From NCBI GenBank assembly GCA_020058085.1, contig JAGVER010000005.1, positions 2,743 through 66,742 of the forward strand: a stretch of DNA of 64,000 bases, given 5' to 3'. The stretch comes from Candidatus Omnitrophota bacterium (GTDB lineage: Bacteria > Omnitrophota > Gorgyraeia > Gygaellales > Profunditerraquicolaceae). The translations under genes were made by a program, and so were the position numbers. The notes beneath the pieces are model-generated. The model was not told where the DNA came from and searched no databases. It saw only the letters and a program-made list of their open reading frames with translations. Below are positions 1-32,511 of the stretch, in pieces; position 1 is the stretch's first letter, and each line of letters begins with the position of its first letter.

Positions 1-3000
1 GGCGGAACCTGGCAGGATATAGTTTCGAATTTAGATGTTGTTCCGGGGGCTAATACCTACCCCTGGACAGTTCCTGTTTCTACCAGCACAAATACAGTGG
101 TTAAGGTAAGTGATTCTTCCGCGCTTTCTAGCGTCTTTAAGCAGACCGGCGTATTTACTATTCGCGGTGGTTTTAGCTTTGTGCATCCAGTAAGTACAGA
201 CCGTTGGTTGGCCAATAGTTCTAAACTTATAGAATGGAATACATTGGGTAGTATTTCTTCCGTTTATATACAGTATTCCTTGCAAGGCGGGGCAGGAGGA
301 ATTTGGAATTTTGTTAATGACGGTTCACCTATTTCTAATGCTACAGAGCAGTATAGTTGGACAGTTCCTAACGCAATTTCGTCTCAGGCGTGCATAAAAA
401 TCACTGATATTAATGATCCTCAAGCTAGCAAGATTTCGGATATTTTTAATATCCATGGCGCTATAACTTTGACCCAGCCCAATGGACAGGAAAAATTAAA
501 AGCGGGCCAGTCTGATACCTCAAGCAAAATCAAATGGACAATGACTGGGCCTATTTCTAGCGTTGACTTAGCACTTTCTACTAATGGCCAGGCGGGAACC
601 TATACGACTTTTGCTGTCAATCAATCAGCTGCGCTTTTAGAGTATCCGTGGTCAGTGCCTACTACTACGCTTTCAAATAATTGTTTTATCCGTATCCGCG
701 ATTCAGGAGATAATTTAGTGGAGGATTTTTCGGATTTAGCCTTTAAGATTATGGAGAACTTCAATCTTACTTCACCTAATGGCACAGAGCAGTGGGTGGT
801 GAGTGATCCACACGATATCACTTGGAACTCTGTAGGCCTGGCAAGTTCTGTTAATCTTAAATATTCCATAGATGCGGCTCATACCACTTGGACTCCGATT
901 ATTTCACAGACCGTTAATGATGGAGTTCATCCTTGGACTATTCCACCCACAATTTCGTCTACTTGTCAGGTACGGGTTTCTGATTTTAATGACGACACAG
1001 ACTCCTATGATCTTTCTGACAGTGACTTCAAAATCCAGGGTAGGGTTACTTTAATTTCTCCTGTAGGCGGTGAAAAATGGGGTTGCGCTAGCCAGCAGTG
1101 GATACGCTGGGGTTGGGATGGAAACATTGCCAAGGTAGACATTCATTATTATAACGGTTCAACCTGGGTAGCTATTGATGAAGCTCAAGGGTATATCAAT
1201 ACTGGTGAGTACGAATGGACCATACCTACGATTTCTACCATTGCGGCAAAGGTGCGCGTAAGAGATAATGCTGATCCCATCAATGTTTACGATATTTCGG
1301 CTGTTCCTTTTAAGATAATGGGCAGGGTAGTGGTTCAGGTTCCTAATGGCGCAGAGGTCTGGTATGCAGGTAGTAATGCTGTCATTACTTGGACAAAATA
1401 TGGGCCTGCTTCTTTTGATACTGTCCGGATTGATTATTCTCTTGATGACCCGGCGTTTAATAGCCCACAGTCTATCACTACTTCTACACCCAATGATGGC
1501 AGCTTTGACTGGTTAAATATGCCTCAAGAGGCAGTTTCAGGTAAGGTCAGAATTCGTATTGCCAAACCCGATGATATTGCCGATGTTTCGGATATCTCCG
1601 ACGGCGATTTCCGCGTGCGCGTGCAGTTCACTTTAAATTCGCCTAATGGCGGACAGAAATGGAGCGTGGCAGGAGAACAAACAATTACCTGGGCACAGAT
1701 TGGAAATACACAAGGGGTAAAGTTTATTTATTATAGACAGGGTAATCCCGCGATTAATCAAACATTTACTCTTCCTTCGGTTTATACAACCGGGACTTGG
1801 AACCATACCTGGACAATACCTGATTTTATTCAGAATGATTTAATAATGCGCGTAGAAGACCCACTGGACAACGGAGCTTTTGATATTTCTGACGCTACTT
1901 TTAAGATTATGGCGGGATTTGTGGTAACTCGTCCGGATGCTTCTTCGGCAAATGAGGTAGATTATAAATGGTATATAGAAGACCCTGAAATTATCCGTTG
2001 GACTTACACCGGAACAGTTTCAGATGTTGGTATTTATTACTCTACTGTTGGCGGTATAGATGGCAGCTGGGTAGCTTTAACCTCTGTCCCTGCCAGTAAT
2101 TTACAATGGACCTGGCCATCTGTGCCTAACCAGATTACTACGCAATTAAAAGTTAAAGTGGGTTCAGCTACTGATGCCGATGCTTATGGTCTTTCTTTCG
2201 GAATGTCCAGGATCGGATCCAAATTTAATTTAACCGCACCTTTAGGGGCTGAAGAATTAATTGTGCAAGATCCTTTTACGATTATCTGGGCTAATACCGG
2301 CACAGTAAGCAAGGTAGACCTGCATTATTCTACGGATGATTTTGTTACACCCAGGGAAATAATTACGAATCTAAACAATGGAGCAAACGGTGGTTTTTAT
2401 AACTGGACCGTTCCTGATGTATTTAGTCATCCGGGCGATCCGCAGACCGTAAAAGTGCGGGTAAAAAGATACACAGATGATGATTCCTTTTTCTTTGATA
2501 TTTCTGGCAATTTCAGGATTAAAGGTAGTCTCTGGGTTAAATCTCCGATTTTAGATGATGAATGGGATATTGGCCAGCCCTATCAGATTAAGTGGGGTTG
2601 GAAGGGAACAATGCCGCAGGTAAAGATTGCCTACTCTACAAATGGTCTATCCGGCCCGTTCAATCCAATTCTGGAGAGTTACGGAATCCCTAATGATGGT
2701 AAAGTGGCAAATGGCGCCGGCTCCGGCGGCCCCGGTTCAGAATATACCTATACTTGGACAATTCCGGATGAAGCCACAGCCAATGCCGTAATTAGAATTC
2801 AAGATGAGCGTATCACAGAATCAGATATAGTTGATGATAGTGAAATTTTTCATATCATTGGTTACCTTGCCAATGTAAAAATAAAAGACCCGGCAAATGG
2901 CCAGGAGGTGAATAAATTAGCCGTAGCCAGTAATTATAATATCAATTGGGAGTGGGGTGGGTCAATGCCCGAGGTTAAAATAACCTATTCTATAAACGGG

Positions 3001-6000
3001 GATACCGGGCCGTTTAATCCCATTGTGGAGAATTATGGAGTTCCTAATGATGGTAAAGTGGCAAATGGCGCCGGCTCCGGCGGCCCCGGTTCAGAATATA
3101 CCTATACTTGGACAATTCCCGATACTATCTCGCCGAATTGTAAGGTAAGAGTAGCAGACCCTAGGGATGAAACTGTGTTTAGCGAATCTGCAATATTTAA
3201 AATTCAGGGCGCCTTTACTTTGATTACTCCGCTAGTGGTTGATAATGGGCAGGGTGTTTATGAATGCCGCTGGGTTACTAATGAAGTAAGAGAAGTAAAA
3301 TGGACTACTTTTGGAACAATCCCCAAGGTTGATTTGGTTTATGCTAAAGATTCTGATAGTGATGGTGATATCGATAATGCGGATTTTACGCAAGAAATTG
3401 CCATGGTAAATGGGACTAATATTAATAATCTTAATACATTTAATTGGACAATTCCCAATGAGCGCTTAGCCAATCCGCCTTATTATGTGGAAGCCAAGAT
3501 ACGTATTTATGACCATAATGATCATGATGTTTATGTTCAGGGCCCGGTTACCGCCGGTGGAGTGGATAACTTGAAGATTGATTACTATAAGATTACCTGG
3601 GATATTAGGGATCTGATTACTAACCGGCAGATCGAAGGCTTGACAGTAAACGATACCTCCGGCTGGGTAGCTACCGGGCTTGCTTCGCCTATCACTCGTT
3701 ATGTTCCTGCAGGTTTCTGGACAGCAGAATGGACAAATAAAGATTATGGGCCGATATCTGAATCTTATCTTGCAGGCTGGGATGAAGATGCTCAGATTTG
3801 GCGGGGTGACCGCACAATTTATCGCACTATGGAGACTTTGGTAGTGCATATCTGGCGGGCTTATTCAGAATTTTCTTATGATGTTCCGCCTACGGATAAA
3901 TTAAATATTACCAGCTGGTTGGAAAGAGATGGTTATTTGGTTTCCGGCGTTTTGATTACAGATGTAACTATCTATGATGGTTTTGATAAGATAAAGAGAA
4001 AGACTAACTTAGTAGACGAGGCCGCTAATAAATTCTATTATTATACTGATATCCCTCCCGGCGTAAAATTGTGGATAGGCGACCGCTTGGGGGAACTGCG
4101 CACTATGCAAAATGTAATCAATGATTGCGCGCCGTATAAAACCGGCGAGATGGCTATACCTGCTGACTTTGCCGGTTTCTTTATCCAGTCTTGGTCTCCC
4201 ACTTCCTATACTGCCTCAGGCACAAATCACAGTACTTTGCAATCAGGTAGAGTCTACGCAGTTGCCAGCTATATGGGTTTATCCACCGGCGCTACCTTTA
4301 CTACTCCCGTATCATTTACGGTTACGATACCCATAGCCATGGCTAATGTTGAAGCAGCGGTTACTGGAATGGTTGACACGGTTAACTCTGTTTTGGATAA
4401 GCCTATATCCGTAGTCAGTGCGGAGATACAGGCTCAGTTAGAGGCGCAAACCGGGATTATTGACCAAAAAATGACTGAGCAGACCCAGATAATTCAGGTT
4501 GCCACCAATAATATGCAGACGATCATTCAGGATGCGATGGTTAGTTTTGAGACTACGGTGCAGGATTCAATTACTCTCTTGAAATCAAGCGCGGCGACAG
4601 CAGAAGAGGCAGCCGGGCTTCTGGAGACCACTGCTAAAAAATACTCTTGGAATGCTATGGTCTCTCCTGATCCGGCACTTACCGGCGATACTGTTACGCT
4701 AACTGCCCAGGGTATGCCCGGGTTAGCTCCCGTGCTTAAAGTTTATAGCTGGGATAATAAGACTATTTTAGATAATATAAAATTGACTGAGGCCAGCGAG
4801 GGAGTCTATAATTATGAATTTAAGGTGGATGCCCGTTTTACCGCGGGAAAGGCGTATACTTATGTGGTTACTGAGCAGAGTACTGCCGGCATGGTCTCCG
4901 GCTCCGGAATGGTAGAAAGTATGAGTCTTACTACGATTGCTGGTTTAGCGGCAGCCGCGCCTGGAGCGGAAAGGGCTGCCAAGAAGGCATTAGATGCGAT
5001 TGCGGCAGTTGAGGCAGTATTAATCTCTAAGGAGCCGATGAATATTGCCCTTACCCTAAAGAACCTTAAAGATTCCGTAGACGCGCTTCCAGAGGTAATG
5101 ACAAAAGAAGGCCCTTCCGCTCGTCTGGCTCAAACAGTAAATGAGATATCAAACAGGATAAAGAAATTGGGCGGCGATGAGGGGTATGATTTTACTACTT
5201 TAGTAGGTGAAGCTATAAACGAGGCGCCGGCTATCAAAGAATTACGCAGCAAGGCGGATGCAATCAGGACATCTACCGATGTTTTGACAAATGTTTTTGA
5301 AGCCAAATTTGGCGGCGTAGATAAGCCTGTTGTTGTAACTTCACTGGAACCCGGAAGCGTCAAATTCCGGATTGTAGCGCTTAACCCTTCGAAGACCAAG
5401 ACGCAAAAAACAGAGATAAAATACTATTTGCCTGCTGAAGTAAAACCAAAAGATATTTCAGATACAGCGGGCTTAGATTTGGAATATGATTCCGAAAAGT
5501 CTATTTACTACGTATATAAACCTGATCTAGAACTTTCTCCGGGTGAGATGCGCGTATTTGAGGTAGAAGTAGAAGATATTTGGTTCTTAGAGCAGAATAA
5601 ACTTTTAGAACTAAAGAATCGCACTGATATAGTCCTTGGTAAGCTTGAGACAACGCCTTATTATACAAAAGCTAAAGAGATAGCCGATACTATTTATCCG
5701 CGCTTAGATGAGATAGCTCTTTCTCAAAAAGATGATTCAATCAATCGCGAACAACATATAGGTATCTATCGGCAAAACCTTTTGACCTTAGGTCAGGTTA
5801 AAGAAGATATCGCCCGAATGGAAAAGATTCTTGTTACTGCCGGAGGGCCACCTGCGCCTGAAATGTTAGCCAAGACTAAAATAAAGGCGGATGAGCCTTC
5901 AAAGACAATGACCTGGATAGTTATTTGCACAGTTATTATTTTTACCGGGCTCTTAGCTGGAGTTCTTTTCTTTACTTGGCACCGCCAGGCACGCATCAGT

Positions 6001-6078
6001 AAAGAAGAACTTTTATCTGCTAAAAAGTCTGCCTTTCCAGAATCTGGTTCTAAAGAAGAACCTAAAGAAAATTCATAA
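1..6078 (+). CDS. Giant repeat-rich cell-surface protein, 5'-truncated by the window edge. It has >=12 tandem ~95-118 aa beta-rich (Ig-like) repeats, non-repeat beta and helical C-terminal regions, and a single C-terminal TM anchor.
   Basis: Frame 1 is open from nt 1, and GGTWQDIVSNLDVVPGANTYPWTVPVS already fits the repeat consensus, so the GTG at 97 is not the true start. Repeat consensus is roughly [FL]xLxSPNGGExW...ITW...G....V.I.YS....W..I....NDG.Y.WT[IV]P.....C.[IV]R[IV].D......D.SD..F.I.G. The TM helix MTWIVICTVIIFTGLLAGVLFFTW (nt 5908-5979) is followed by the basic tail HRQARISKEE. Confidence 0.85.
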   Translation, partial: GGTWQDIVSNLDVVPGANTYPWTVPVSTSTNTVVKVSDSSALSSVFKQTGVFTIRGGFSFVHPVSTDRWLANSSKLIEWNTLGSISSVYIQYSLQGGAGGIWNFVNDGSPISNATEQYSWTVPNAISSQACIKITDINDPQASKISDIFNIHGAITLTQPNGQEKLKAGQSDTSSKIKWTMTGPISSVDLALSTNGQAGTYTTFAVNQSAALLEYPWSVPTTTLSNNCFIRIRDSGDNLVEDFSDLAFKIMENFNLTSPNGTEQWVVSDPHDITWNSVGLASSVNLKYSIDAAHTTWTPIISQTVNDGVHPWTIPPTISSTCQVRVSDFNDDTDSYDLSDSDFKIQGRVTLISPVGGEKWGCASQQWIRWGWDGNIAKVDIHYYNGSTWVAIDEAQGYINTGEYEWTIPTISTIAAKVRVRDNADPINVYDISAVPFKIMGRVVVQVPNGAEVWYAGSNAVITWTKYGPASFDTVRIDYSLDDPAFNSPQSITTSTPNDGSFDWLNMPQEAVSGKVRIRIAKPDDIADVSDISDGDFRVRVQFTLNSPNGGQKWSVAGEQTITWAQIGNTQGVKFIYYRQGNPAINQTFTLPSVYTTGTWNHTWTIPDFIQNDLIMRVEDPLDNGAFDISDATFKIMAGFVVTRPDASSANEVDYKWYIEDPEIIRWTYTGTVSDVGIYYSTVGGIDGSWVALTSVPASNLQWTWPSVPNQITTQLKVKVGSATDADAYGLSFGMSRIGSKFNLTAPLGAEELIVQDPFTIIWANTGTVSKVDLHYSTDDFVTPREIITNLNNGANGGFYNWTVPDVFSHPGDPQTVKVRVKRYTDDDSFFFDISGNFRIKGSLWVKSPILDDEWDIGQPYQIKWGWKGTMPQVKIAYSTNGLSGPFNPILESYGIPNDGKVANGAGSGGPGSEYTYTWTIPDEATANAVIRIQDERITESDIVDDSEIFHIIGYLANVKIKDPANGQEVNKLAVASNYNINWEWGGSMPEVKITYSINGDTGPFNPIVENYGVPNDGKVANGAGSGGPGSEYTYTWTIPDTISPNCKVRVADPRDETVFSESAIFKIQGAFTLITPLVVDNGQGVYECRWVTNEVREVKWTTFGTIPKVDLVYAKDSDSDGDIDNADFTQEIAMVNGTNINNLNTFNWTIPNERLANPPYYVEAKIRIYDHNDHDVYVQGPVTAGGVDNLKIDYYKITWDIRDLITNRQIEGLTVNDTSGWVATGLASPITRYVPAGFWTAEWTNKDYGPISESYLAGWDEDAQIWRGDRTIYRTMETLVVHIWRAYSEFSYDVPPTDKLNITSWLERDGYLVSGVLITDVTIYDGFDKIKRKTNLVDEAANKFYYYTDIPPGVKLWIGDRLGELRTMQNVINDCAPYKTGEMAIPADFAGFFIQSWSPTSYTASGTNHSTLQSGRVYAVASYMGLSTGATFTTPVSFTVTIPIAMANVEAAVTGMVDTVNSVLDKPISVVSAEIQAQLEAQTGIIDQKMTEQTQIIQVATNNMQTIIQDAMVSFETTVQDSITLLKSSAATAEEAAGLLETTAKKYSWNAMVSPDPALTGDTVTLTAQGMPGLAPVLKVYSWDNKTILDNIKLTEASEGVYNYEFKVDARFTAGKAYTYVVTEQSTAGMVSGSGMVESMSLTTIAGLAAAAPGAERAAKKALDAIAAVEAVLISKEPMNIALTLKNLKDSVDALPEVMTKEGPSARLAQTVNEISNRIKKLGGDEGYDFTTLVGEAINEAPAIKELRSKADAIRTSTDVLTNVFEAKFGGVDKPVVVTSLEPGSVKFRIVALNPSKTKTQKTEIKYYLPAEVKPKDISDTAGLDLEYDSEKSIYYVYKPDLELSPGEMRVFEVEVEDIWFLEQNKLLELKNRTDIVLGKLETTPYYTKAKEIADTIYPRLDEIALSQKDDSINREQHIGIYRQNLLTLGQVKEDIARMEKILVTAGGPPAPEMLAKTKIKADEPSKTMTWIVICTVIIFTGLLAGVLFFTWHRQARISKEELLSAKKSAFPESGSKEEPKENS
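2689..3119 (+). repeat. Two perfect 77-nt direct repeats (2689-2765 and 3043-3119), 354 nt apart, inside adjacent protein repeats of the giant gene
   Basis: cctaatgatggtaaagtggcaaatggcgccggctccggcggccccggttcagaatatacctatacttggacaattcc occurs identically twice. It encodes PNDGKVANGAGSGGPGSEYTYTWTIP in both repeat units, while the flanking sequence has diverged. Confidence 0.95.
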
Positions 6079-20379: not shown

Positions 20380-20427
20380 CACCCGGCCTTAATGGATAGG
20401 CCGGTGTGCACTTACTGTGCAAGGAGG
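20379..20427 (+). promoter_or_regulatory. Hairpin-hairpin-SD leader motif (copy 1 of a repeated element)
   Basis: acacccggcc(20379-88)/ggccggtgtg(20399-408) form a stem with a bulged C. A second hairpin, tgcac-ttact-gtgca, is followed by SD aggagg (20422-27) and the ATG at 20433. The motif is nearly identical to 22028-22076. Confidence 0.6.
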
Positions 20428-20432
20428 TTTAG

Positions 20433-20933: not shown

Positions 20934-21287
20934 ATGTTTATCAAAATAAAAAATATCTGCCTGTTAGCTATATTTTCTCTTATTATTTTATTCCCTCTCT
21001 TCGCGCAGGATGATACGGGCCTGAAGGAAGATGCCGAGGGGAAAACAGTAATTAAGACTGTATCCGGGCTTAAATTTGAAGTTCCTGAAGACAGGCCCAT
21101 CGAAGAGAGGAATAATATTATCGCCCCAATGCCCTTGGATGAATATGTCGCGTTAAAATTTTCGAAGTTTGAATCCCGCTTGCAGAAAATCGAGGAGAAT
21201 ATCAACCAAATTCAGGATCAATTAAATATTATTCAAGGGGAGTTAAACTCACCCAAGGCCAAAGAAAACCCTTCGCAAAAACCGTAA
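20934..21287 (+). CDS. Hypothetical secreted protein with C-terminal coiled coil
   Basis: Signal peptide MFIKIKNICLLAIFSLIILFPLFAQ. The C-terminal heptad-like segment is LQKIEENINQIQDQLNIIQGEL. Confidence 0.55.
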   Translation: MFIKIKNICLLAIFSLIILFPLFAQDDTGLKEDAEGKTVIKTVSGLKFEVPEDRPIEERNNIIAPMPLDEYVALKFSKFESRLQKIEENINQIQDQLNIIQGELNSPKAKENPSQKP

Positions 21288-21422
21288 TCAGTTAAGAAAT
21301 AAAAAAAAGATACTATAATAAACTCTGCTGACTTTTATGTTTTTATCTTTGGCTTCACTCACGTTCAGGTCCTTGTTGCCTACGGCAATTTCGCTAAACA
21401 AAAACTTAAAGAGCTCAAATTT

Positions 21423-21637
21423 CGCACAGCCAGTGCGCATACCTCGCCTCGACCGAAGGGCGAGTGTGTTGCTTTCTGCAGCACTTGCCAATCGCCTCAG
21501 AAGAGGCGCACTTTACTATCAGATAAGTAAAGGTGCCTATTTGGCAAGGTGCGCTAGACCAAAGATTAAGGTGCTCTTATCCTTGATCTCACTTGCGTTC
21601 GATCAAGGATTTCGCTGGACCAAAGATTAAGGTGCTC
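21423..21637 (+). ncRNA. Candidate structured RNA or long 5' leader of unknown class
   Basis: Consecutive hairpins: cgcac/gtgcg (21423-37), ctcgcc/ggcgag (21443-64), gtgttgc/gcagcac (21466-84, U.G wobble only on the plus strand). There is also a three-way junction closed by cttgccaa/ttggcaag (21484-21548), then two 25-nt direct repeats cgct[ag]gaccaaagattaaggtgctc (21552-76, 21613-37) flanking the hairpin atccttgatc/gatcaaggat. Confidence 0.35.
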
Positions 21638-21714
21638 AAATTATTATTGCATTAATCTGACTTTAGCTATACAATAAAAAGCCTGTGAAAGTTTTATGCT
21701 AAAAAGGAGAAGAG

Positions 21715-21876
21715 ATGGTTGAGCGTAGTGAGTTTAAGGGTAAGCCTGTTTTGGTAATCAAGAGGGATGAGAATGATCAATACCCGTTTTCATTCGGAAT
21801 TAGCAAGGCCAAGTTGATCCTGGAGAACATTGAAGAGATCAAAAAGTTTGTTTCAGAGACAGAGGCTAAGCAATAA
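21715..21876 (+). CDS. Small hypothetical protein (53 aa), absent from the ORF track
   Basis: SD aaaaggaga sits 5 nt upstream of the ATG at 21715. Product is MVERSEFKGKPVLVIKRDENDQYPFSFGISKAKLILENIEEIKKFVSETEAKQ, with protein-like composition. Confidence 0.5.
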   Translation: MVERSEFKGKPVLVIKRDENDQYPFSFGISKAKLILENIEEIKKFVSETEAKQ

Positions 21877-21890
21877 AAAATATGAATATG

Positions 21891-21919
21891 TTGACTTGGG
21901 AATTAAATTAAAGTATAAT
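21891..21919 (+). promoter_or_regulatory. Sigma70-type promoter for rpsO-pnp
   Basis: TTGACT (21891-96), 17-nt spacer, TATAAT (21914-19). Confidence 0.65.
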
Positions 21920-21931
21920 ATTAAATATGAG

Positions 21932-22076
21932 ACACCCCGCGTTAAACATGAGGCACCTGGCCTCGATAGGAATTAGGCCAGTGTTCGCCTGGTGGCGAAA
22001 ATTGCGCGGGTGTGCGCTTACTGTGCAACACCCGGCCTTATTTGAGAGGCCGGTGTGCACTTACTGTGCAAGGAGG
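21932..22076 (+). promoter_or_regulatory. Structured rpsO 5' leader made of two tandem copies of the hairpin motif; candidate S15 autoregulatory element
   Basis: Unit A is acaccccgcg(21932-41)/cgcgggtgtg(22005-14) enclosing two internal hairpins, then tgcgc-ttact-gtgca. Unit B is acacccggcc(22028-37)/ggccggtgtg(22048-57), then tgcac-ttact-gtgca, then SD aggagg (22071-76). Stem sequences covary between units (ccgcg/cgcgg vs cggcc/ggccg). Confidence 0.6.
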
Positions 22077-22085
22077 TGATTAAGG

Positions 22086-22355
22086 TTGGTTTTGGTAAAA
22101 GAAAAGAAGATAAAGATCATTGATGAGTTTAGGGTTCACGCTAGGGATACCGGTTCAGCCGAGGTCCAGATCGCAATATTAACTGAAAGAATTAATCAGT
22201 TAGGGGATCATTTTAAGGCCCACAAAAAAGATTTTAGTTCTCGCCGCGGTTTACTTTGCCTTGTAGGCACGCGCCGTAGTCTGCTCAGTTATCTCAAGAA
22301 GAAAAATGCCAAGAAGTACGAAGAGGTTTTGGGCAAGCTTCACTTGAGAAAATAA
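22086..22355 (+). CDS. rpsO: 30S ribosomal protein S15
   Basis: TTG start 9 nt after the SD. ...DTGSAEVQIAILTERINQLGDHFKAHKKDFSSRRGLLCLVGTRRSLLSYLKKKN... is canonical S15. Confidence 0.95.
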   Translation: MVLVKEKKIKIIDEFRVHARDTGSAEVQIAILTERINQLGDHFKAHKKDFSSRRGLLCLVGTRRSLLSYLKKKNAKKYEEVLGKLHLRK

Positions 22356-22380: not shown

Positions 22381-24462
22381 ATGAATGATAATACCTTAAA
22401 ATTAAAATTTGGTAGGAACGACCTAATCTTAGAAACAGGTAAGGTTGCTAAGCAAGCTAACGGTTCCGTAGTTGTTACTTATGGCGGAACAGTTGTGCTA
22501 ATTACTGCCTGTATGTCTCGCGAAGTAAGAGAAGGGCGTGATTTCTTTCCTTTAACAGTAGAATATCAGGAGAAGACTTACGCTGCCGGAAGGATTCCGG
22601 GAGGTTTTTTCAAGCGAGAGGGCAGGCCTTCGGAGAGCGAGATTCTTGCTGCCCGATTAATCGACCGGCCAATAAGGCCGCTTTTCCCAAAAGGTTTATT
22701 TAATGACGTACAGGTTATGGCTATTGTCCTCTCAAGCGACGGAGAGAATGATCCGGATGTCTTAGCGGTCAATGGCGCTTCAGCGGCATTATGTATATCT
22801 GATATACCATTTAATGGCCCATTAGTAGCATGTCGTGTAGCCAGAGTAAATAACGAATTAATAATTAATCCTACTTATGCCGAATTAGATATCGCGGACT
22901 TAGAAGTAATTATAGCCGCTAACAATAAAGGTATCGTGATGCTTGAATCAAAAGCCAAAGAGATATCCGAAGAAGAGTATCTTGAGGTAGTTAGGTTTGG
23001 GCATAATCATTTGAAAGATCTGATTCATCTTCAGGAGGAATTTGCTAAGAAGTACGGAAAACCTAAAGCAAATGTTGAATTTAAGAAGATAGACCCGGAT
23101 TTAAAGGCTAAGGTTAACGAATTATCGCGCGATAGGCTAAAAGAAGTCTATAGCCTTGGTAAAAAAGAAGAGCGTGAAGAAGCAGTGCATTTATTGGCTA
23201 AAGAACTTGAAGAAAAACTTACTGCTGAAGGTTATTCTAGCGATCAGATTAAGCTTGCGCTTGATGAAGTAGAGGCGCAGCAAGTTAGAAATAAGATACT
23301 TACCGAAAATGTGCGTATTGACGGCAGGGGTTTTAAAGATATACGACCGATTACTTGTGAAGTTTCTCTCTTACCCCGTACTCATGGTTCAAGTTTGTTT
23401 ACCCGCGGGCAGACACAGAGTCTTGCTGTAACTACTTTAGGCACAGGTGAAGATGAACAGATGGTCGAAGCCTTAGAGGGCAAAAAATATAAATCTTTTA
23501 TGTTGCATTATAGTTTTCCGCCTTTTAGTGTTGGTGAGACCGGGCCTGTGCGTGGTCCGGGCAGAAGAGAGATAGGCCATGGAGCATTGGCTGAGAAAGC
23601 TATCCTTGCAGTAATGCCGTCTAAAGAAAAATTTCCTTATACAGTAAGAGTGGTATCCGAGATTTTAGAGTCAAATGGCTCTTCAAGCATGGCTACAGTT
23701 TGTGCTGTGGCTTTATCGCTTATGGATGCGGGTGTGCCTATAAAAGATACTGTTGCCGGTATTGCTTTAGGTTTAATTAAAGAAGGGGATAAAGCTTTAA
23801 TTCTGACAGATATCGCGGGCCTTGAAGATCATTTCGGAGATATGGATTTTAAAGTTGCCGGAACTAGGCAGGGTGTTACTGCTGTGCAATTAGATTTAAA
23901 AATAGACGGCATAGAGATAGAGTTATTAGGTAAGTGTTTATCTGAAGCTAAAATAGCCAGAATGACCATTTTAGATAAAATGAGCGAAGCCTTATCCAAG
24001 CCCCGCGAGAAATTATCCAGCTATGCCCCGCGTATAGATGTATTAAAGATAAATACCGAGAAGATCGGGGAACTTATTGGCCCAGGCGGAAAGAATATCA
24101 AAGCGATTATTGCCGCAACCGGAGCAAGCGTAGATATAGAGGACGATGGCACGGTTTTGGTTGGTTCTACTGACGCTTTAAAGTCAGAGGCGGCGATTAA
24201 GATGATTAGGGCAATAACCGATGATGTAGAAGTTGGCCGTGTCTATATAGGTAAAGTAAAGCGTATCATGCCGTTTGGCGCTTTCTGTGAAATTGCCCCG
24301 CGTAAAGAAGGTTTGGTGCATGTTTCAGAACTTTCGGATAAATTCATCAAGAATGTTGATGAAGTGGTTAAAATCGGCGATGAGATTAAAGTTAAGGTCA
24401 TCGGTATAGATGAATTAGGCAGGATAAATTTAAGTAAGAAACAAGCCGAGCAGGCTGGTTAG
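22381..24462 (+). CDS. pnp: Polyribonucleotide nucleotidyltransferase (PNPase)
   Basis: 693 aa with two RNase PH domains, KH and S1 domains. rpsO-pnp synteny. Confidence 0.95.
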   Translation: MNDNTLKLKFGRNDLILETGKVAKQANGSVVVTYGGTVVLITACMSREVREGRDFFPLTVEYQEKTYAAGRIPGGFFKREGRPSESEILAARLIDRPIRPLFPKGLFNDVQVMAIVLSSDGENDPDVLAVNGASAALCISDIPFNGPLVACRVARVNNELIINPTYAELDIADLEVIIAANNKGIVMLESKAKEISEEEYLEVVRFGHNHLKDLIHLQEEFAKKYGKPKANVEFKKIDPDLKAKVNELSRDRLKEVYSLGKKEEREEAVHLLAKELEEKLTAEGYSSDQIKLALDEVEAQQVRNKILTENVRIDGRGFKDIRPITCEVSLLPRTHGSSLFTRGQTQSLAVTTLGTGEDEQMVEALEGKKYKSFMLHYSFPPFSVGETGPVRGPGRREIGHGALAEKAILAVMPSKEKFPYTVRVVSEILESNGSSSMATVCAVALSLMDAGVPIKDTVAGIALGLIKEGDKALILTDIAGLEDHFGDMDFKVAGTRQGVTAVQLDLKIDGIEIELLGKCLSEAKIARMTILDKMSEALSKPREKLSSYAPRIDVLKINTEKIGELIGPGGKNIKAIIAATGASVDIEDDGTVLVGSTDALKSEAAIKMIRAITDDVEVGRVYIGKVKRIMPFGAFCEIAPRKEGLVHVSELSDKFIKNVDEVVKIGDEIKVKVIGIDELGRINLSKKQAEQAG

Positions 24463-30934: not shown

Positions 30935-30948
30935 TAATCAATAGATTA

Positions 30949-31149
30949 ATCTTCAGGGCAGGGTGGAATTCCCGACCGGCGGTTGCGCAGAAGCGCACAC
31001 CGACGCTTCCTTTAGCGTTGGGTGAAAAGTCCGCGAGCTCTTAACGAAAGTTAGAGCATGAACCGGTGAGACTCCGGTACCGATGGTAGCGCACAGGCGC
31101 ATACTAACCTATCCTATTAGGTTGGGTAACAGTCCAGATGAAAGAAGAT
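30949..31149 (+). ncRNA. FMN riboswitch (RFN element) with expanded peripheral stems
   Basis: P1 is atcttc/gaagat. Conserved cores are cagggcagggtggaattcccgaccggcgg, aaaagtccgcgagc, accggtgagactccggtaccgatgg and aacagtccagatgaaagaaga. It lies upstream of ribBA. Confidence 0.92.
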
Positions 31150-31160
31150 GTTTACACTTA

Positions 31161-31299: not shown

Positions 31300-32511
31300 A
31301 TGCTGAATACTATTCCAGAAATACTTGAGGATTTAAAAAACGGGAAGATGGTCATTGTGGTTGATGATGAAAGCCGCGAGAACGAAGGTGACCTGGTTGT
31401 GGCTGCGTCTTTTACCAAACCAGAAGACATAAATTTCATGGCCAAATTTGGCCGTGGGCTAATTTGTGTCCCTATGGAAGAATCAAGACTTGATTCTCTA
31501 GGTCTAGGACCAATGTTAAAGGAGCAGTATCTTCCTATTCAGAAAGATCCTTTTTCTACTGCTTGGGTTATCTCGGTTGATGCGGCTAGAGGAGTTACTA
31601 CCGGGATATCTGCTTATGACCGTTCGCGTACAATTGAAGTTTTGATCGATCCTAAAACAAGGCCTGAAGATTTAGTTAAGCCAGGGCATGCATTTCCTTT
31701 AAGGGCGCGTCAAGGAGGTGTTTTAGTTCGTGCAGGCCATACTGAAGCAACTCTGGATCTTATGCGTTTAAGCGGATTATATCCGGCAGGAGTTATCTGT
31801 GAGATTATGAATGATGACGGAAGTATGAGTCGGATGCCGCAGCTCTTAGAATTCTCTAAGAAACATAATTTGAAGATCTGTTCTATCGCTAATCTTATTG
31901 AATACCGGCGTAAATCTGAAAGATTAATTGAGAAGTTAGCGGAGACTATTTTACCCACAGAATTCGGAGAATTTAAACTTATCCTTTACAAGGACCTTAC
32001 GAATAATAAGGTTCATACTGCTTTAGTTATGGGACAATTGAACGAGGATCCGGTTTTAGTGCGCGTGCATTCAGAGTGTTTGACTGGAGATGTCTTTGGT
32101 TCATTGCGTTGTGACTGCGGCCGGCAGTTAGCTAAGGCAATGCAGATTATATCTTCTGAAGGTAGGGGAGTTATACTTTATATGAATCAAGAGGGTAGGG
32201 GGATTGGCCTTGTGGATAAGATCAAGGCTTATCATTTGCAGGATAAAGGCATGGATACAGTTGAGGCTAATGAAGCATTGGGGCATAAGCCTGATTTAAG
32301 AGATTATGGAATAGGCGCGCAGATTCTGGTAGATTTAGGAATAAAAAATATAAGGTTGTTTACCAATAATCCGCGTAAGATTATCGGCTTGGAGGGTTAT
32401 GGCCTGCGTGTTGTTGAGCGGGTTTCTTTAGAGATTGGGCATAATCCGGCGAATTACAAATATCTAAAAACCAAAAAGGAGAAGTTGGGGCATAATTTAA
32501 AGATAGAATAA
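31300..32511 (+). CDS. ribBA: Bifunctional 3,4-dihydroxy-2-butanone-4-phosphate synthase / GTP cyclohydrolase II
   Basis: [12 protein letters not shown] (RibB part) and [18 protein letters not shown] (RibA part). Confidence 0.95.

Follow-up and report, generated by a model that had tools for sequence, protein, structure and literature searches.

The DNA between a 117-aa gene and a 53-aa gene of a Candidatus Omnitrophota bacterium folds into a dense series of hairpins with 25-nt direct repeats, and the question is what this region does. The window analysed here is the whole stretch of 64,000 nucleotides in which it lies. A preliminary description had read the region as a novel small RNA (sRNA) or as a long regulatory leader of the 53-aa gene, and its observations on the DNA itself were borne out. 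The promoter-like sequence TTAAGA (21292-21297), followed by a 16-nt spacer and TATAAT (21314-21319), is present and agrees with 10 of 12 consensus positions, as a consensus match only. The two copies of the direct repeat (21552-21576 and 21613-21637) are identical at 24 of 25 positions and share an exact core of 20 nt, for which 0 chance matches are expected, and the 10-bp hairpin between them was found at 21579-21588/21601-21610. The consecutive hairpins are real, and the three-way junction, placed at 21485-21548 by the minimum-free-energy fold, recurs at another locus (L086). The folding energy has a z-score of about -3.2 on both strands, which is significant but modest and gives no indication of the strand. 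The local GC content (0.435-0.48 vs about 0.35-0.40 nearby) is mildly enriched, and the open reading frames of 97 and 67 aa inside the region have no Pfam match.

Positions 21362-21642 are, in our view, probably a tandem array of three units (A, B and C) of a dispersed, modular repeat family of Omnitrophota. They form a lineage-specific block that coincides exactly with a break in synteny. The preceding segment, 21288-21361 (plus strand, as are all features of the array given below), lies outside the repeats and is the native 3' flank of the 117-aa gene; up to about 21357 it can be aligned with the DNA 3' of the 117-aa gene homologues in two relatives (L016 and L017), more weakly beyond 21310, and it holds the TTAAGA and TATAAT hexamers. 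The array opens with the decayed hairpin of unit A (21368-21391), the stem of which consists of TTGCC (21376-21380) and GGCAA (21384-21388). Its 5' arm, GGTCCTTG, has no partner, and six bases, CAAGGA, are missing in comparison with the intact form aggtccttgttgcctacggcaacaaggattt, which is present in L061, L082 and L084. Next comes a third copy of the direct repeat, hereafter the tail, that had been overlooked previously. This tail copy 1, CGCTAAACAAAAACTTAAAGAGCTC (21392-21416), is degenerate, with the ribosome-binding motif AAGGUG changed to AAAGAG; it was detected by the tail profile (nhmmer, E=9e-8), also satisfies the degenerate search pattern described below, and is grouped with the other two copies by repeat analysis.

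The following module K (21417-21551) has the canonical form AAUUUCGCACAGNNAGUGCGCACUUGCCAAUCCUAUUUGGCAAGGUG, seen in L082, L065, L021, L091, L048 and others, and is elaborated by insertions in the window. It comprises the K1 hairpin (21423-21437), a window-specific insert (21438-21484) with two hairpins (21443-21464 and 21466-21484), and the three-way junction, which replaces a simple UUGCCAA...UUGGCAA hairpin. The three-way-junction form is common to the window and L086 (88.5% identity over 96 nt), and one arm of the junction carries a compensatory change (ctttact/agtaaag in the window vs ctttgcc/ggcaaag in L086). According to the fold, the closing helix of the module is intact despite the insertions. 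Tail copy 2, CGCTAGACCAAAGATTAAGGTGCTC (21552-21576; E=6e-9), is followed by the hairpin of unit C, ATCCTTGATC-TCACTTGCGTTC-GATCAAGGAT (21579-21610), which is recognised from the inverted repeat and the fold and has, besides its 10-bp stem, a UC/UC internal loop and a 2-bp apical stem. It belongs to the commonest hairpin subtype of the family, and near-identical hairpins occur in L023, L026, L033, L055, L071, L080, L084 and L087. After tail copy 3, CGCTGGACCAAAGATTAAGGTGCTC (21613-21637; E=1.5e-10), the array ends at about 21642. The tail copies are spaced 160 and 61 nt apart. Unit C and the sequence following it are 90% identical to L047 over 111 nt, and BLAST of the window region against the loci bearing units covered 21362-21648 piecewise, at 76-95% identity. 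The tail profile found no additional copy elsewhere in the 64-kb window.

For the search of other genomes, we used the degenerate pattern CGCTRRACMAAARMTTAARGWGCTC, which accommodates all three tail copies of the window. It was found at 91 loci, 23 of them in genome contigs and 68 in metagenome contigs; the chance expectation in the genome collection is about 0.14 by our own estimate. The named genomes with the pattern are nearly all Omnitrophota, with up to 6 unit-bearing contigs per genome, and the matches are frequently at contig ends. A unit consists of a covarying hairpin, UUU, and the 25-nt tail CGCUAGACMAAARCUUAAGGUGCUC. The modules, namely hairpin (short, long and plain subtypes), tail and module K, are combined as hairpin-tail, as hairpin-tail-K-tail, or as two to five successive hairpin-tail pairs, so that tandem arrays have 2-5 units; the composite order hairpin-tail-K-tail-promoter is also found in L082, L065 and L021. 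The number of units varies at orthologous sites, with one unit ahead of glmS in L018 vs five in L054. Only 7 of 114 profile matches lie inside an open reading frame. Literature searches on Omnitrophota or Omnitrophica repeats, RNA motifs and Velamenicoccus returned no description of this element, and those on interspersed intercistronic hairpin or Shine-Dalgarno repeats returned nothing comparable. In our reading, the units constitute a new, modular family of repeats interspersed between genes, with a loose resemblance to BOX, REP or MIRU elements.

The predicted hairpin ends 0-4 nt ahead of the tail in 74 of 82 units. Its closing pairs AUCC/GGAU are conserved and the UC/UC internal loop is frequent, and the rest of the stem varies, with 46 different 8-nt 3' arms among 81 units. 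An ungapped test of arm complementarity discriminated poorly (65 of 81 units with at least 7 of 8 pairs vs 38% of controls), and we replaced it by counting pairs on an anchored alignment. At the eight outer stem pairs, 84% of the cells are paired vs 59.6% in shuffles, and 95 cells have changed on both sides vs 32.6 +/- 4.3 in shuffles, a count reached by 0 of 500 shuffles; the partners in this alignment were chosen by RNAfold, which biases it toward pairing. In the long variant of the hairpin, compensatory changes were found in 13 of 25 pairs. Stem mismatches of the G.U type and of the A.C type are equal in number (10 each); therefore, the stems give no strand signal, and a hairpin of single-stranded DNA remains compatible with the data. 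Identical subtypes recur at unrelated places: a 60-nt hairpin ahead of purF (L030) is 98% identical to one ahead of glmS (L108), and the subtype with ATCCTTGATC is present at more than 10 loci.

The position of the tail relative to genes suggests a use of its conserved sequence. A start codon follows the tail within 25 nt in 30 of 90 non-redundant units, and in 24 of those within 1-5 nt. Ahead of the genes for GlmS, PurF and AsnB-like proteins, the order is AAGGUG, CUCA and then AUG, and AAGGUG is also found ahead of the genes for SerS and NusB. The N-terminus MCGI... of GlmS, PurF and AsnB-like proteins, with its obligatory Met-Cys, fixes the start codon of these genes. In about one third of the units, AAGGUG thus stands directly ahead of the AUG of a housekeeping gene, which argues that the tail provides the ribosome-binding site there, as the predicted Shine-Dalgarno sequence of the next gene. 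It is the only Shine-Dalgarno sequence of the glmS, purF, serS and nusB orthologues that carry units. The tail is kept upstream of such orthologues at a protein identity of 70-79%; for glmS at this distance, the tail is 88-96% identical and the sequence of the hairpin is replaced. The starts of dnaK (13 nt past the tail) and recA (15-17 nt) have a GGAGG of their own between the tail and AUG. Extended pairing of the tail with 16S rRNA, in the manner of the T7 'epsilon' enhancer, was rejected, because the longest run with E. coli 16S rRNA is 9 and shuffled tails reach 9-10 routinely. Ribosome binding leaves the equal invariance of the 15 nt upstream of AAGGUG unexplained, as it does the frequent position of the tail just ahead of a -35 box.

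With regard to orientation, the downstream open reading frame is on the strand of the unit in 80 of 94 cases, and about 15% of the units point away from it. Both flanking open reading frames share the strand of the unit in 50 cases and lie opposite to it in 7. Some units begin directly after the stop codon of the upstream gene; that at recA (L024 and L036) is preceded by a perfect TTGACA-17-TATAAT promoter. From these positions, the units appear to sit inside mRNAs, either between cistrons after a stop codon or in the 5' UTR below a clear promoter. Other units, for example those in L065 and L020, are located on the upstream side of a promoter between divergent genes, where they could not be transcribed from any upstream gene. 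A hexamer resembling a -35 box is found 3-13 nt past the tail in 15 of 90 units including the window (TTGACA in 9); the DNA between the tail and this hexamer is rich in A/T, and apart from that the promoter spacers show no relationship.

Known RNA families and element classes were compared with the region. Scanning the whole window with Rfam 15 at the gathering threshold detected only an FMN riboswitch (30945-31153) and tRNA-Pro; an E-value scan of 21150-22150 gave preQ1-II as the best match, at 21.5 bits (threshold 47; E=0.77), and no unit at sixteen other unit-bearing loci had an Rfam match. ARAGORN found no tmRNA in the region. The region thus matches no known RNA family, in agreement with the previous statement that it has no recognisable signature of tmRNA, RNase P, SRP RNA or common riboswitches. 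A CRISPR array was rejected: the spacing is irregular, the "spacers" are hairpins with conserved closing pairs that recur elsewhere, no array exceeds 5 units and many stop 1 nt short of a start codon, and there is no cas gene among the adjacent genes, for which Pfam gives pilM/N, a pilO-like gene, a DUF2582 gene, S15 and PNPase. Of the features of a Rho-independent terminator, the units have the hairpin, which is followed by just UUU and CGCU. Only one unit lies between convergent open reading frames vs 50 between co-directional ones, and many lie within operons directly ahead of AUG; the terminator scan reports a single site, at 21443-21464, inside the window-specific insert. A type III toxin-antitoxin system of the ToxI type was dismissed because the downstream 53-aa protein is conserved without the repeats and the spacing is irregular. 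Mobile DNA of phages or plasmids was likewise dismissed, as neither blastn ("distant" mode) against collections of phages and plasmids nor scanning viral contigs for the pattern produced a match.

Three classes of bacterial repeats are closer. The BOX elements of Streptococcus pneumoniae are intergenic repeats of modular structure, boxA-boxB(n)-boxC, with predicted stable stem-loops, and are non-coding and co-transcribed with neighbouring genes. Like them, the Omnitrophota units are short and dispersed between genes and are assembled from a small set of modules whose number and order vary; they are predicted to form stem-loops, to be co-transcribed with their neighbours and to lack coding capacity. 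However, in the Omnitrophota family the conserved part is a single-stranded Shine-Dalgarno tail used by housekeeping genes and the hairpin varies, and the family extends over many genomes of a phylum whereas BOX belongs to one species; going by their descriptions, the two appear dissimilar in sequence. Mycobacterial interspersed repetitive units (MIRUs) also form tandem arrays of units of tens of bases between the cistrons of operons, with downstream expression preserved. They are described as containing short open reading frames overlapping the flanking stop and start codons, which leads to translational coupling, whereas the Omnitrophota units supply a hairpin and a ribosome-binding site. 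REP/BIME sequences have a conserved palindrome with a 5' GTAG tetranucleotide, are associated with RAYT transposases and can stabilise the 3' ends of mRNA. The Omnitrophota units are similarly extragenic, multi-copy, hairpin-forming (91 loci; 74 of 82 units), orientation-biased, sometimes clustered and possibly able to stabilise mRNA 3' ends. The palindrome, however, varies with compensatory changes of the arms, and what is conserved is the non-palindromic 3' tail of 25 nt. As a functional analogy only, a defined hairpin with a fixed single-stranded leader for ribosome binding, reused ahead of many genes, recalls synthetic insulator cassettes (Csy4, ribozyme insulators) and the 5'-stabilising stem-loop of the ompA 5' UTR. 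Those are engineered or confined to a single gene, whereas the Omnitrophota cassette is natural and common to many genes and genomes, which would be unusual to our knowledge.

At the window locus, the 53-aa gene (21715-21876, plus strand), described earlier as a tiny open reading frame, is a real gene, widely conserved, with more than 800 homologues at 72-96% identity and a ribosome-binding site of its own, AAAGGAG (21702-21708). It is followed by rpsO (22086-22355; Pfam S15) and pnp (22381-24462), and this order is common to L001-L008 and L012-L015. The 53-aa protein had no sequence match in Pfam, NCBIfam or PDB, and its AlphaFold model had no Foldseek match in PDB; the exact sequences of the 53-aa and 117-aa proteins of the window have no database record. 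The putative promoter of the 53-aa gene (21647-21675, plus strand), TTGCAT (21647-21652), a 17-nt spacer and TACAAT (21670-21675), begins 9 nt past tail 3. The region of this promoter aligns with L015 (90% identity, 21645-21714) and with L001-L014 (80%, 21639-21678). In the relatives whose 53-aa protein is 85-96% identical (L001-L008 and L012-L015), a gene of 55 or 56 aa occupies the position of the array, only about 120-170 nt are present ahead of the 53-aa gene, and homology to the window starts at about 21640-21645. The closest relatives thus match the window in the 53-aa gene, its promoter, rpsO and pnp, and differ in having no array. The tail profile found no copy in L001-L017, and when the contexts of relatives on both sides were compared, the block was absent near the 117-aa gene homologues too. 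Lack of conservation in relatives had been named beforehand as evidence against the sRNA or leader reading; the block is indeed absent from this locus in the relatives, yet it is conserved as a dispersed family. A degraded gene was considered and rejected, as the 55/56-aa protein found in relatives had no tblastn match in the window and the internal reading frames had no Pfam match. As a separate observation on the right-hand junction, unit C agrees at 18 of 22 positions with the 3' end of the small gene in L015 (reached by 1 of 1000 shuffles); this possible microhomology is suggestive only and is unsupported by L001 or L005.

None of the three tails of the window, by inspection, serves as a ribosome-binding site, although the tail appears to do so in other family members: AAGGUG is lost from tail 1, a further hairpin comes after tail 2, and 9 nt beyond tail 3 the promoter of the 53-aa gene begins with its -35 box. 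The array occupies the interval from the 3' flank of the pil/117-aa block to this promoter, exactly where gene order departs from that of relatives; it is therefore most likely a by-product of proliferation or recombination of the repeat, and would at most provide a 3' end or an insulator for transcripts reading through from upstream. What stands of the preliminary description is thus a non-coding, hairpin-forming region of no known family; the array is neither a dedicated sRNA gene nor the leader of the 53-aa gene.

As for how the repeat family works, we infer from these comparisons that a unit may act at the RNA level as intergenic punctuation. Where the upstream message ends, the hairpin would serve as a barrier, whether for stabilisation, processing or read-through; the tail would give the next gene a standard leader for ribosome loading, and units would be spread or exchanged between loci by duplication or recombination.

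Other explanations were weighed against the reading of the window sequence as part of a dispersed repeat family. That the region is a long cis-regulatory leader or riboswitch of the 53-aa gene was a natural suggestion for a structured sequence directly upstream on the same strand, but we consider it highly improbable. The promoter common to the relatives is downstream of the repeats, and therefore the mRNA of the 53-aa gene need not contain them; moreover, relatives with 85-96% identical proteins have a different gene in place of the region, no Rfam match was obtained, and the same modules stand beside unrelated genes. An independent sRNA of about 320 nt, transcribed from TTAAGA-16-TATAAT (21292-21319), might present three decoy tails that titrate ribosomes or an RNA-binding protein, as a sponge of the CsrB/RsmZ type. 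Such a role would account for the 10/12 promoter match upstream of the array, the several copies of a motif that elsewhere is a ribosome-binding site, the folding z-score of -3.2 and the insertions in module K that leave the closing helix intact. It is nevertheless unlikely: comparable arrays (L082, L065, L021, L038, L085 and L080) have no promoter-like site just upstream, the hexamers fall in the stretch aligning with the 3' flank in L016 and L017, which do not have them, there is no terminator at the end of the array (the only terminator-like site being internal), and close relatives have no array. The recurrence of the modules at about 90 unrelated loci, beside unrelated genes, also speaks against a novel sRNA gene. 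Very doubtful, too, is a DNA element upstream of promoters, in which a transcription factor or the alpha subunit of RNA polymerase would bind to the tail, alone or together with the hairpin region, at about -45 to -70 of the 53-aa gene promoter and many others. Its basis is the tail placed 3-13 nt ahead of a -35-like hexamer in those 15 of 90 units, some in divergent intergenic regions. However, within operons the same tail directly precedes start codons and no promoter comes after it, the covariation of the stem indicates a folded single strand, the relatives use the same 53-aa promoter without any unit, and the tail has neither dyad nor direct-repeat symmetry.

Concerning the family as a whole, it could be a selfish repeat of single-stranded DNA, a miniature element derived from REP/RAYT or IS200/605 in which a transposase or recombinase recognises the hairpin and its flank. 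The copies would persist where they are harmless, with no RNA function; the ribosome-binding site in the tail would make insertion between genes tolerable, and the window array would be junk at a recombination junction. The multiple copies per genome, often at contig ends, the identical hairpin subtypes at unrelated loci, the different unit numbers at orthologous glmS sites, the location of the window array exactly at a synteny break and the stems without an RNA-strand signal are all in line with this possibility, which we hold to be rather unlikely, as the tail is kept as the sole Shine-Dalgarno sequence of orthologous glmS, purF, serS and nusB, terminal inverted repeats and target-site duplications were not seen, phage, plasmid and viral collections gave no matches, and the conserved part, unlike that of REP elements, is not a palindrome. 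If the family is merely selfish, it would be an example of a repeat surviving inside operons by carrying its own ribosome-binding site. A more specific version of the punctuation model, which we put forward only tentatively, is a dedicated signal of this phylum: a factor would recognise the closing pairs, the UC/UC loop and the tail, cut or mark polycistronic transcripts, and hand the leader to the ribosome. If so, the candidate factor would be, for example, an endoribonuclease, an RNA-binding protein or a special ribosome contact, the units would be a natural operon punctuation with a universal ribosome-binding cassette, and multi-unit arrays, including that of the window, would be decoys or buffers for the factor.

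Omnitrophota are uncultured, ultra-small bacteria, and their gene regulation is essentially obscure. For this phylum, 176 complete genomes are reported (bioRxiv 10.64898/2026.06.07.730766), and metatranscriptomic data sets exist for a methanogenic limonene culture with Ca. Velamenicoccus (PMC12583861). A 25-nt sequence bearing a ribosome-binding site is near-invariant ahead of unrelated housekeeping genes in genomes whose orthologues are 70-79% identical, and it is coupled to a covarying hairpin, a situation that is, as far as we know, unusual for bacteria. The repeat family may offer a direct way of testing how mRNA is processed and how translation is initiated in this phylum. For the window, a supposed novel sRNA or leader of 400 nt becomes a three-unit repeat array at a breakpoint of gene order, and the real promoter and the real small gene both lie downstream of it. 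The family can also serve as an annotation marker for intergenic regions of Omnitrophota, the assemblies of which often break at such arrays.

Interval 21288-21714 separates a 117-aa ORF (20934-21287, + strand) from a 53-aa ORF (21715-21876, + strand), with a pilM/N fusion, a pilO-like gene and a DUF2582 gene as upstream neighbours and rpsO (22086-22355) and pnp (22381-24462) downstream. The elements named here in the preliminary description were found again: the promoter-like TTAAGA-16-TATAAT at 21292-21319 (10 of 12 consensus positions matched), a 25-nt direct repeat at 21552-21576 and 21613-21637 (exact 20-nt core; 0 matches expected by chance), a 10-bp hairpin between the two copies, a three-way junction (21485-21548, seen in the minimum-free-energy fold) and a raised local GC content, which is modest (0.435-0.48). 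The region matched no Rfam family and contains no tmRNA, and no Pfam match was found for the two ORFs within it. The folding z-score of the region was -3.2, both strands alike. In addition, a third, degenerate repeat copy is present at 21392-21416.

Homologues of the 53-aa protein number more than 800, mostly in Omnitrophota, and at 85-96% identity the gene order in all contexts was UvrD/PD-(D/E)XK helicase, 55/56-aa gene, 53-aa gene, rpsO and pnp. These relatives have merely about 120-170 nt ahead of the 53-aa gene, and their homology with the window starts no earlier than about 21640-21645; the homologous part consists of the promoter common to them (TTGCAT 21647-21652, 17-nt spacer, TACAAT 21670-21675), a short 5' UTR and the ribosome-binding site of the 53-aa gene. 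On the other side, the 117-aa protein had only three protein-database matches (one identical sequence and two homologues), and the DNA 3' of the homologues (loci L016 and L017) can be aligned with the window as far as about 21357, past which the sequences are unrelated. These limits on both sides therefore define a lineage-specific block at 21362-21642. It sits exactly where the gene order departs from that of the relatives, and the 55/56-aa gene is absent throughout the 64-kb window.

The block proved to be an array from a dispersed repeat family. Each unit consists of a hairpin, UUU and a 25-nt tail with the ribosome-binding motif AAGGUG; the three repeat copies are the tails of units A, B and C. 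A degenerate pattern fitting all three (CGCTRRACMAAARMTTAARGWGCTC; chance expectation in the genome collection about 0.14 by our own estimate) occurred at 68 metagenome loci and at 23 loci in one-genome-per-species contigs, of which 14 are labelled Omnitrophota/Omnitrophica, 8 'Planctomycetales' MAGs and 1 'Patescibacteria group'; up to six contigs with the pattern came from one genome. One of the 'Planctomycetales' MAGs (L018) shares its hairpin with an Omnitrophica MAG (L028), and the GlmS proteins of the two are 91% identical. A tail profile search gave 123 significant hits in 92 sources, the window included, with no copy in the relatives of the 53-aa and 117-aa genes (L001-L017) and no further one in the window. 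Searches of phage, plasmid and viral collections returned no matches. Many family hits are within a few dozen bases of contig ends (L023, L026, L029, L032, L050, L066, L071, L087 and others); thus, arrays of near-identical units seem to break short-read Omnitrophota assemblies, and unit copy numbers are probably underestimated.

The tails retrieved hardly vary; the search pattern itself prescribes 18 of the 25 bases. At the other seven positions, where it permits two bases, both occur among 62 distinct tail-plus-flank sequences, and the flanks are biased (T at -2 in 59/62, A at +1 in 52/62). A predicted hairpin ends 0-4 nt ahead of the tail in 74 of 82 units. The stem sequence is varied (46 different 3' arms in 81 units), yet its pairing is preserved: with partners taken from RNAfold predictions, a choice that favours pairing, 84% of stem cells were paired versus 59.6% in shuffles and 95 were changed on both sides versus 32.6 +/- 4.3; 0 of 500 shuffles reached either observed value, and slid-partner controls were 29-48% paired. 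Recurrent features are the closing pairs AUCC/GGAU and a UC/UC internal loop followed by two base pairs. Hairpins were classified as short (about 32 nt), plain (without the internal loop) or long (about 60 nt, with a second, A/U-rich helix), and compensatory changes were found in 13 of 25 pairs of the long class. This long variant resembles a defined RNA motif (alignment A5; L018, L022, L025, L030, L031, L052, L058, L069, L077, L107, L108), with a covarying P1, the UC/UC internal loop, a UCRUAA junction and a P2 that has a conserved AAAAUU:AAUUUU core, covarying outer pairs and often the apical loop CUCUUNCGAU. A second module type, K (UUUCGCACAGNNAGUGCGCACUUGCCAAUCCUAUUUGGCAAGGUG), can stand in place of the hairpin; the copy in the window (21417-21551) has insertions and an intact closing helix.

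By BLAST against the family loci, 21362-21648 was covered piecewise. L082, L065, L061 and L021 have counterparts of unit A and the first part of module K. The three-way junction plus tail 2 has its counterpart in L086 (88.5% over 96 nt), where one junction arm differs by a compensatory change (ctttact/agtaaag in the window, ctttgcc/ggcaaag in L086), and unit C together with what follows it corresponds to a stretch of L047 (90% over 111 nt). Only 21438-21484, containing two hairpins, has no counterpart elsewhere.

The units are intergenic, with just 7 of 114 profile hits inside ORFs. By crude longest-ORF calls, unit and downstream ORF were co-oriented in 80 of 94 cases, both flanking ORFs were on the strand of the unit in 50 cases and on the opposite strand in 7, and only one unit lay between convergent ORFs. 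Because many units start right after an upstream stop codon (others after a tRNA gene), and because the unit at recA (L024 and L036) comes after a perfect TTGACA-17-TATAAT promoter, units appear to be inside mRNAs. A start codon follows the tail within 25 nt in 30 of 90 non-redundant units, in 24 of them at 1-5 nt, where AAGGUG is the sole Shine-Dalgarno sequence. Among the genes that follow are glmS, purF and an asnB-like gene (each product has an obligatory Met-Cys N-terminus), serS, nusB and an isocitrate/isopropylmalate-dehydrogenase-like gene. At dnaK (13 nt) and recA (15-17 nt), the gene's own GGAGG stands between tail and AUG. Before start codons, N-terminal-nucleophile glutamine amidotransferases (glmS, purF, asnB-like) are strikingly frequent (L018, L022, L030, L031, L054, L072, L108), which could reflect a shared regulon, recent copying or search-pattern bias. 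Tandem arrays have 2-5 units (five before glmS in L054; two in L033, L049, L071, L072 and L084). In 15 of the 90 units, including the window, a -35-like hexamer (TTGACA in 9) begins 3-13 nt past the tail, and the promoter spacers that follow are mutually unrelated. Window 21368-21576 is built like the composite hairpin(ccttgttgcctacggcaacaagg)-tail-K-tail-promoter in L082, L065 and L021.

Between orthologous glmS genes whose proteins are 70-79% identical, the tail is preserved (88-96% identity) but the hairpin is a different one, which argues that the tail is maintained by function. On the other hand, hairpins before purF (L030, about 2555-2641) and glmS (L108, about 236-322) are 98% identical over 60 nt, the ATCCTTGATC hairpin subtype occurs at more than 10 loci, and unit number varies between orthologous sites. 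Such near-identity at unrelated loci and the differing unit number argue that units are copied or exchanged between loci; selection on the tail and spread of units can act together. The mechanism that we favour from position and conservation is that the hairpin would serve RNA stability, processing or as a read-through barrier, and the tail would be a standard ribosome-loading leader.

In the window array, unit A is decayed (its 3' arm is six bases short and AAGGUG is now AAAGAG), after tail 2 comes the next hairpin and after tail 3 the native promoter, and the 53-aa gene has its own ribosome-binding site, AAAGGAG; thus, judged from the sequence, none of the three tails is able to serve as a ribosome-binding site here. 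The array occupies the gap from the 3' flank of the 117-aa gene to the next promoter. Our best reading is that these copies of the repeat were left behind, or arose, at the junction of a rearrangement and would, at most, give read-through transcripts a structured 3' end or an insulator.

Among the other explanations, a selfish element acting on single-stranded DNA is unlikely but deserves the most weight, as the stems carry no strand signal and unit orientation may go with replication. Transcription from 21292-21319 as an independent sponge RNA seems improbable, since similar arrays at other loci lack a promoter-like site immediately ahead of them. Still more doubtful is a DNA-level promoter-upstream element, which would explain the fixed distance to -35 boxes but leaves unexplained the units abutting start codons inside operons. 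A riboswitch or leader of the 53-aa gene (a leader was once proposed for this region) is effectively excluded and has the slightest chance of all, because the block is missing at the locus of the relatives. A CRISPR array and type III antitoxin repeats were ruled out by spacing, the nature of the 'spacers' and the neighbouring genes. The family, absent from Rfam 15 and without a published description in the literature searched, is most like the modular interspersed intergenic repeats BOX, REP/BIME and MIRU of other bacteria. However, unlike these, it conserves a single-stranded tail and not a palindrome, the tail is a working ribosome-binding site of conserved housekeeping genes, and the family is common to many genomes of one phylum.

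Several observations concern the neighbouring genes. The 53-56-aa gene between the helicase gene and the 53-aa gene is conserved in all relatives keeping rpsO-pnp downstream (L001 2708-2878, L005 2665-2832, L015 378-539; product ME.KIGHLKV...AAVCCEHLTEG... in L001 and L005). In L015 its 3' end (TCAAGGCTTTGCGCCGGACTAA) agrees at 18 of 22 positions with the base of unit C and the first bases of that unit's tail, a likeness reached by 1 of 1000 shuffles; on this weak evidence, there may be microhomology at the rearrangement junction. In L005-L008, one and the same two-hairpin 5' UTR stands before both the 55-aa and the 53-aa gene (about 2598-2664 and 2931-3000), a duplicated leader cassette ctccgcRcatagYgcggag ... 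aaacgtt..aacgttt ... aaggagg. The 53-aa family, encoded directly upstream of rpsO-pnp in Omnitrophota relatives, has 19 invariant residues and members labelled Omnitrophota, Margulisbacteria, WOR-1 and Planctomycetes. No sequence match was found in Pfam, NCBIfam or PDB; the AlphaFold2 model (pLDDT 84.5) is a beta-hairpin with two helices, for which Foldseek found no PDB match.

The window also contains a second, unrelated hairpin-plus-RBS cassette, CACCCGGCC...GGCCGGUG, then UGCACUUACUGUGCA, then AGGAGGU (as DNA, CACCCGGCC..GGCCGGTG, TGCACTTACTGTGCA, AGGAGGT). One copy (20380-20428) lies right after the DUF2582 stop codon and directly before a 163-aa gene, another (22029-22078) immediately before rpsO, next to a partial copy (22006-22028); the two full copies are identical at 46 of 49 positions, and the 12-mer CTTACTGTGCAA occurs 3 times versus 0.32 expected. 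The cassette is also at the orthologous site in L016 (about 1055-1105). Since this cassette, too, is reused before different genes, such reuse may be a more general habit of this genome. The rpsO leader of about 165 nt (window 21880-22085), below a strong promoter-like TTGACT-17-TATAAT (21891-21919), is highly structured (-73 kcal/mol) and, by comparison with the leader of about 60 nt in relatives such as L001, seems to have grown by tandem duplication and insertion. A candidate leader for S15 autoregulation, it has no match in Rfam (best, the L31 leader at 13.5 bits). An FMN riboswitch (30945-31153; 85.1 bits, E=6.5e-18) upstream of an ORF starting at 31300 is unusual in that two of its loops carry large insertions (43 and 45 nt). 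Giant proteins are a known feature of Omnitrophota, and a very long ORF of 1993 aa is present at the start of the window (97-6078).
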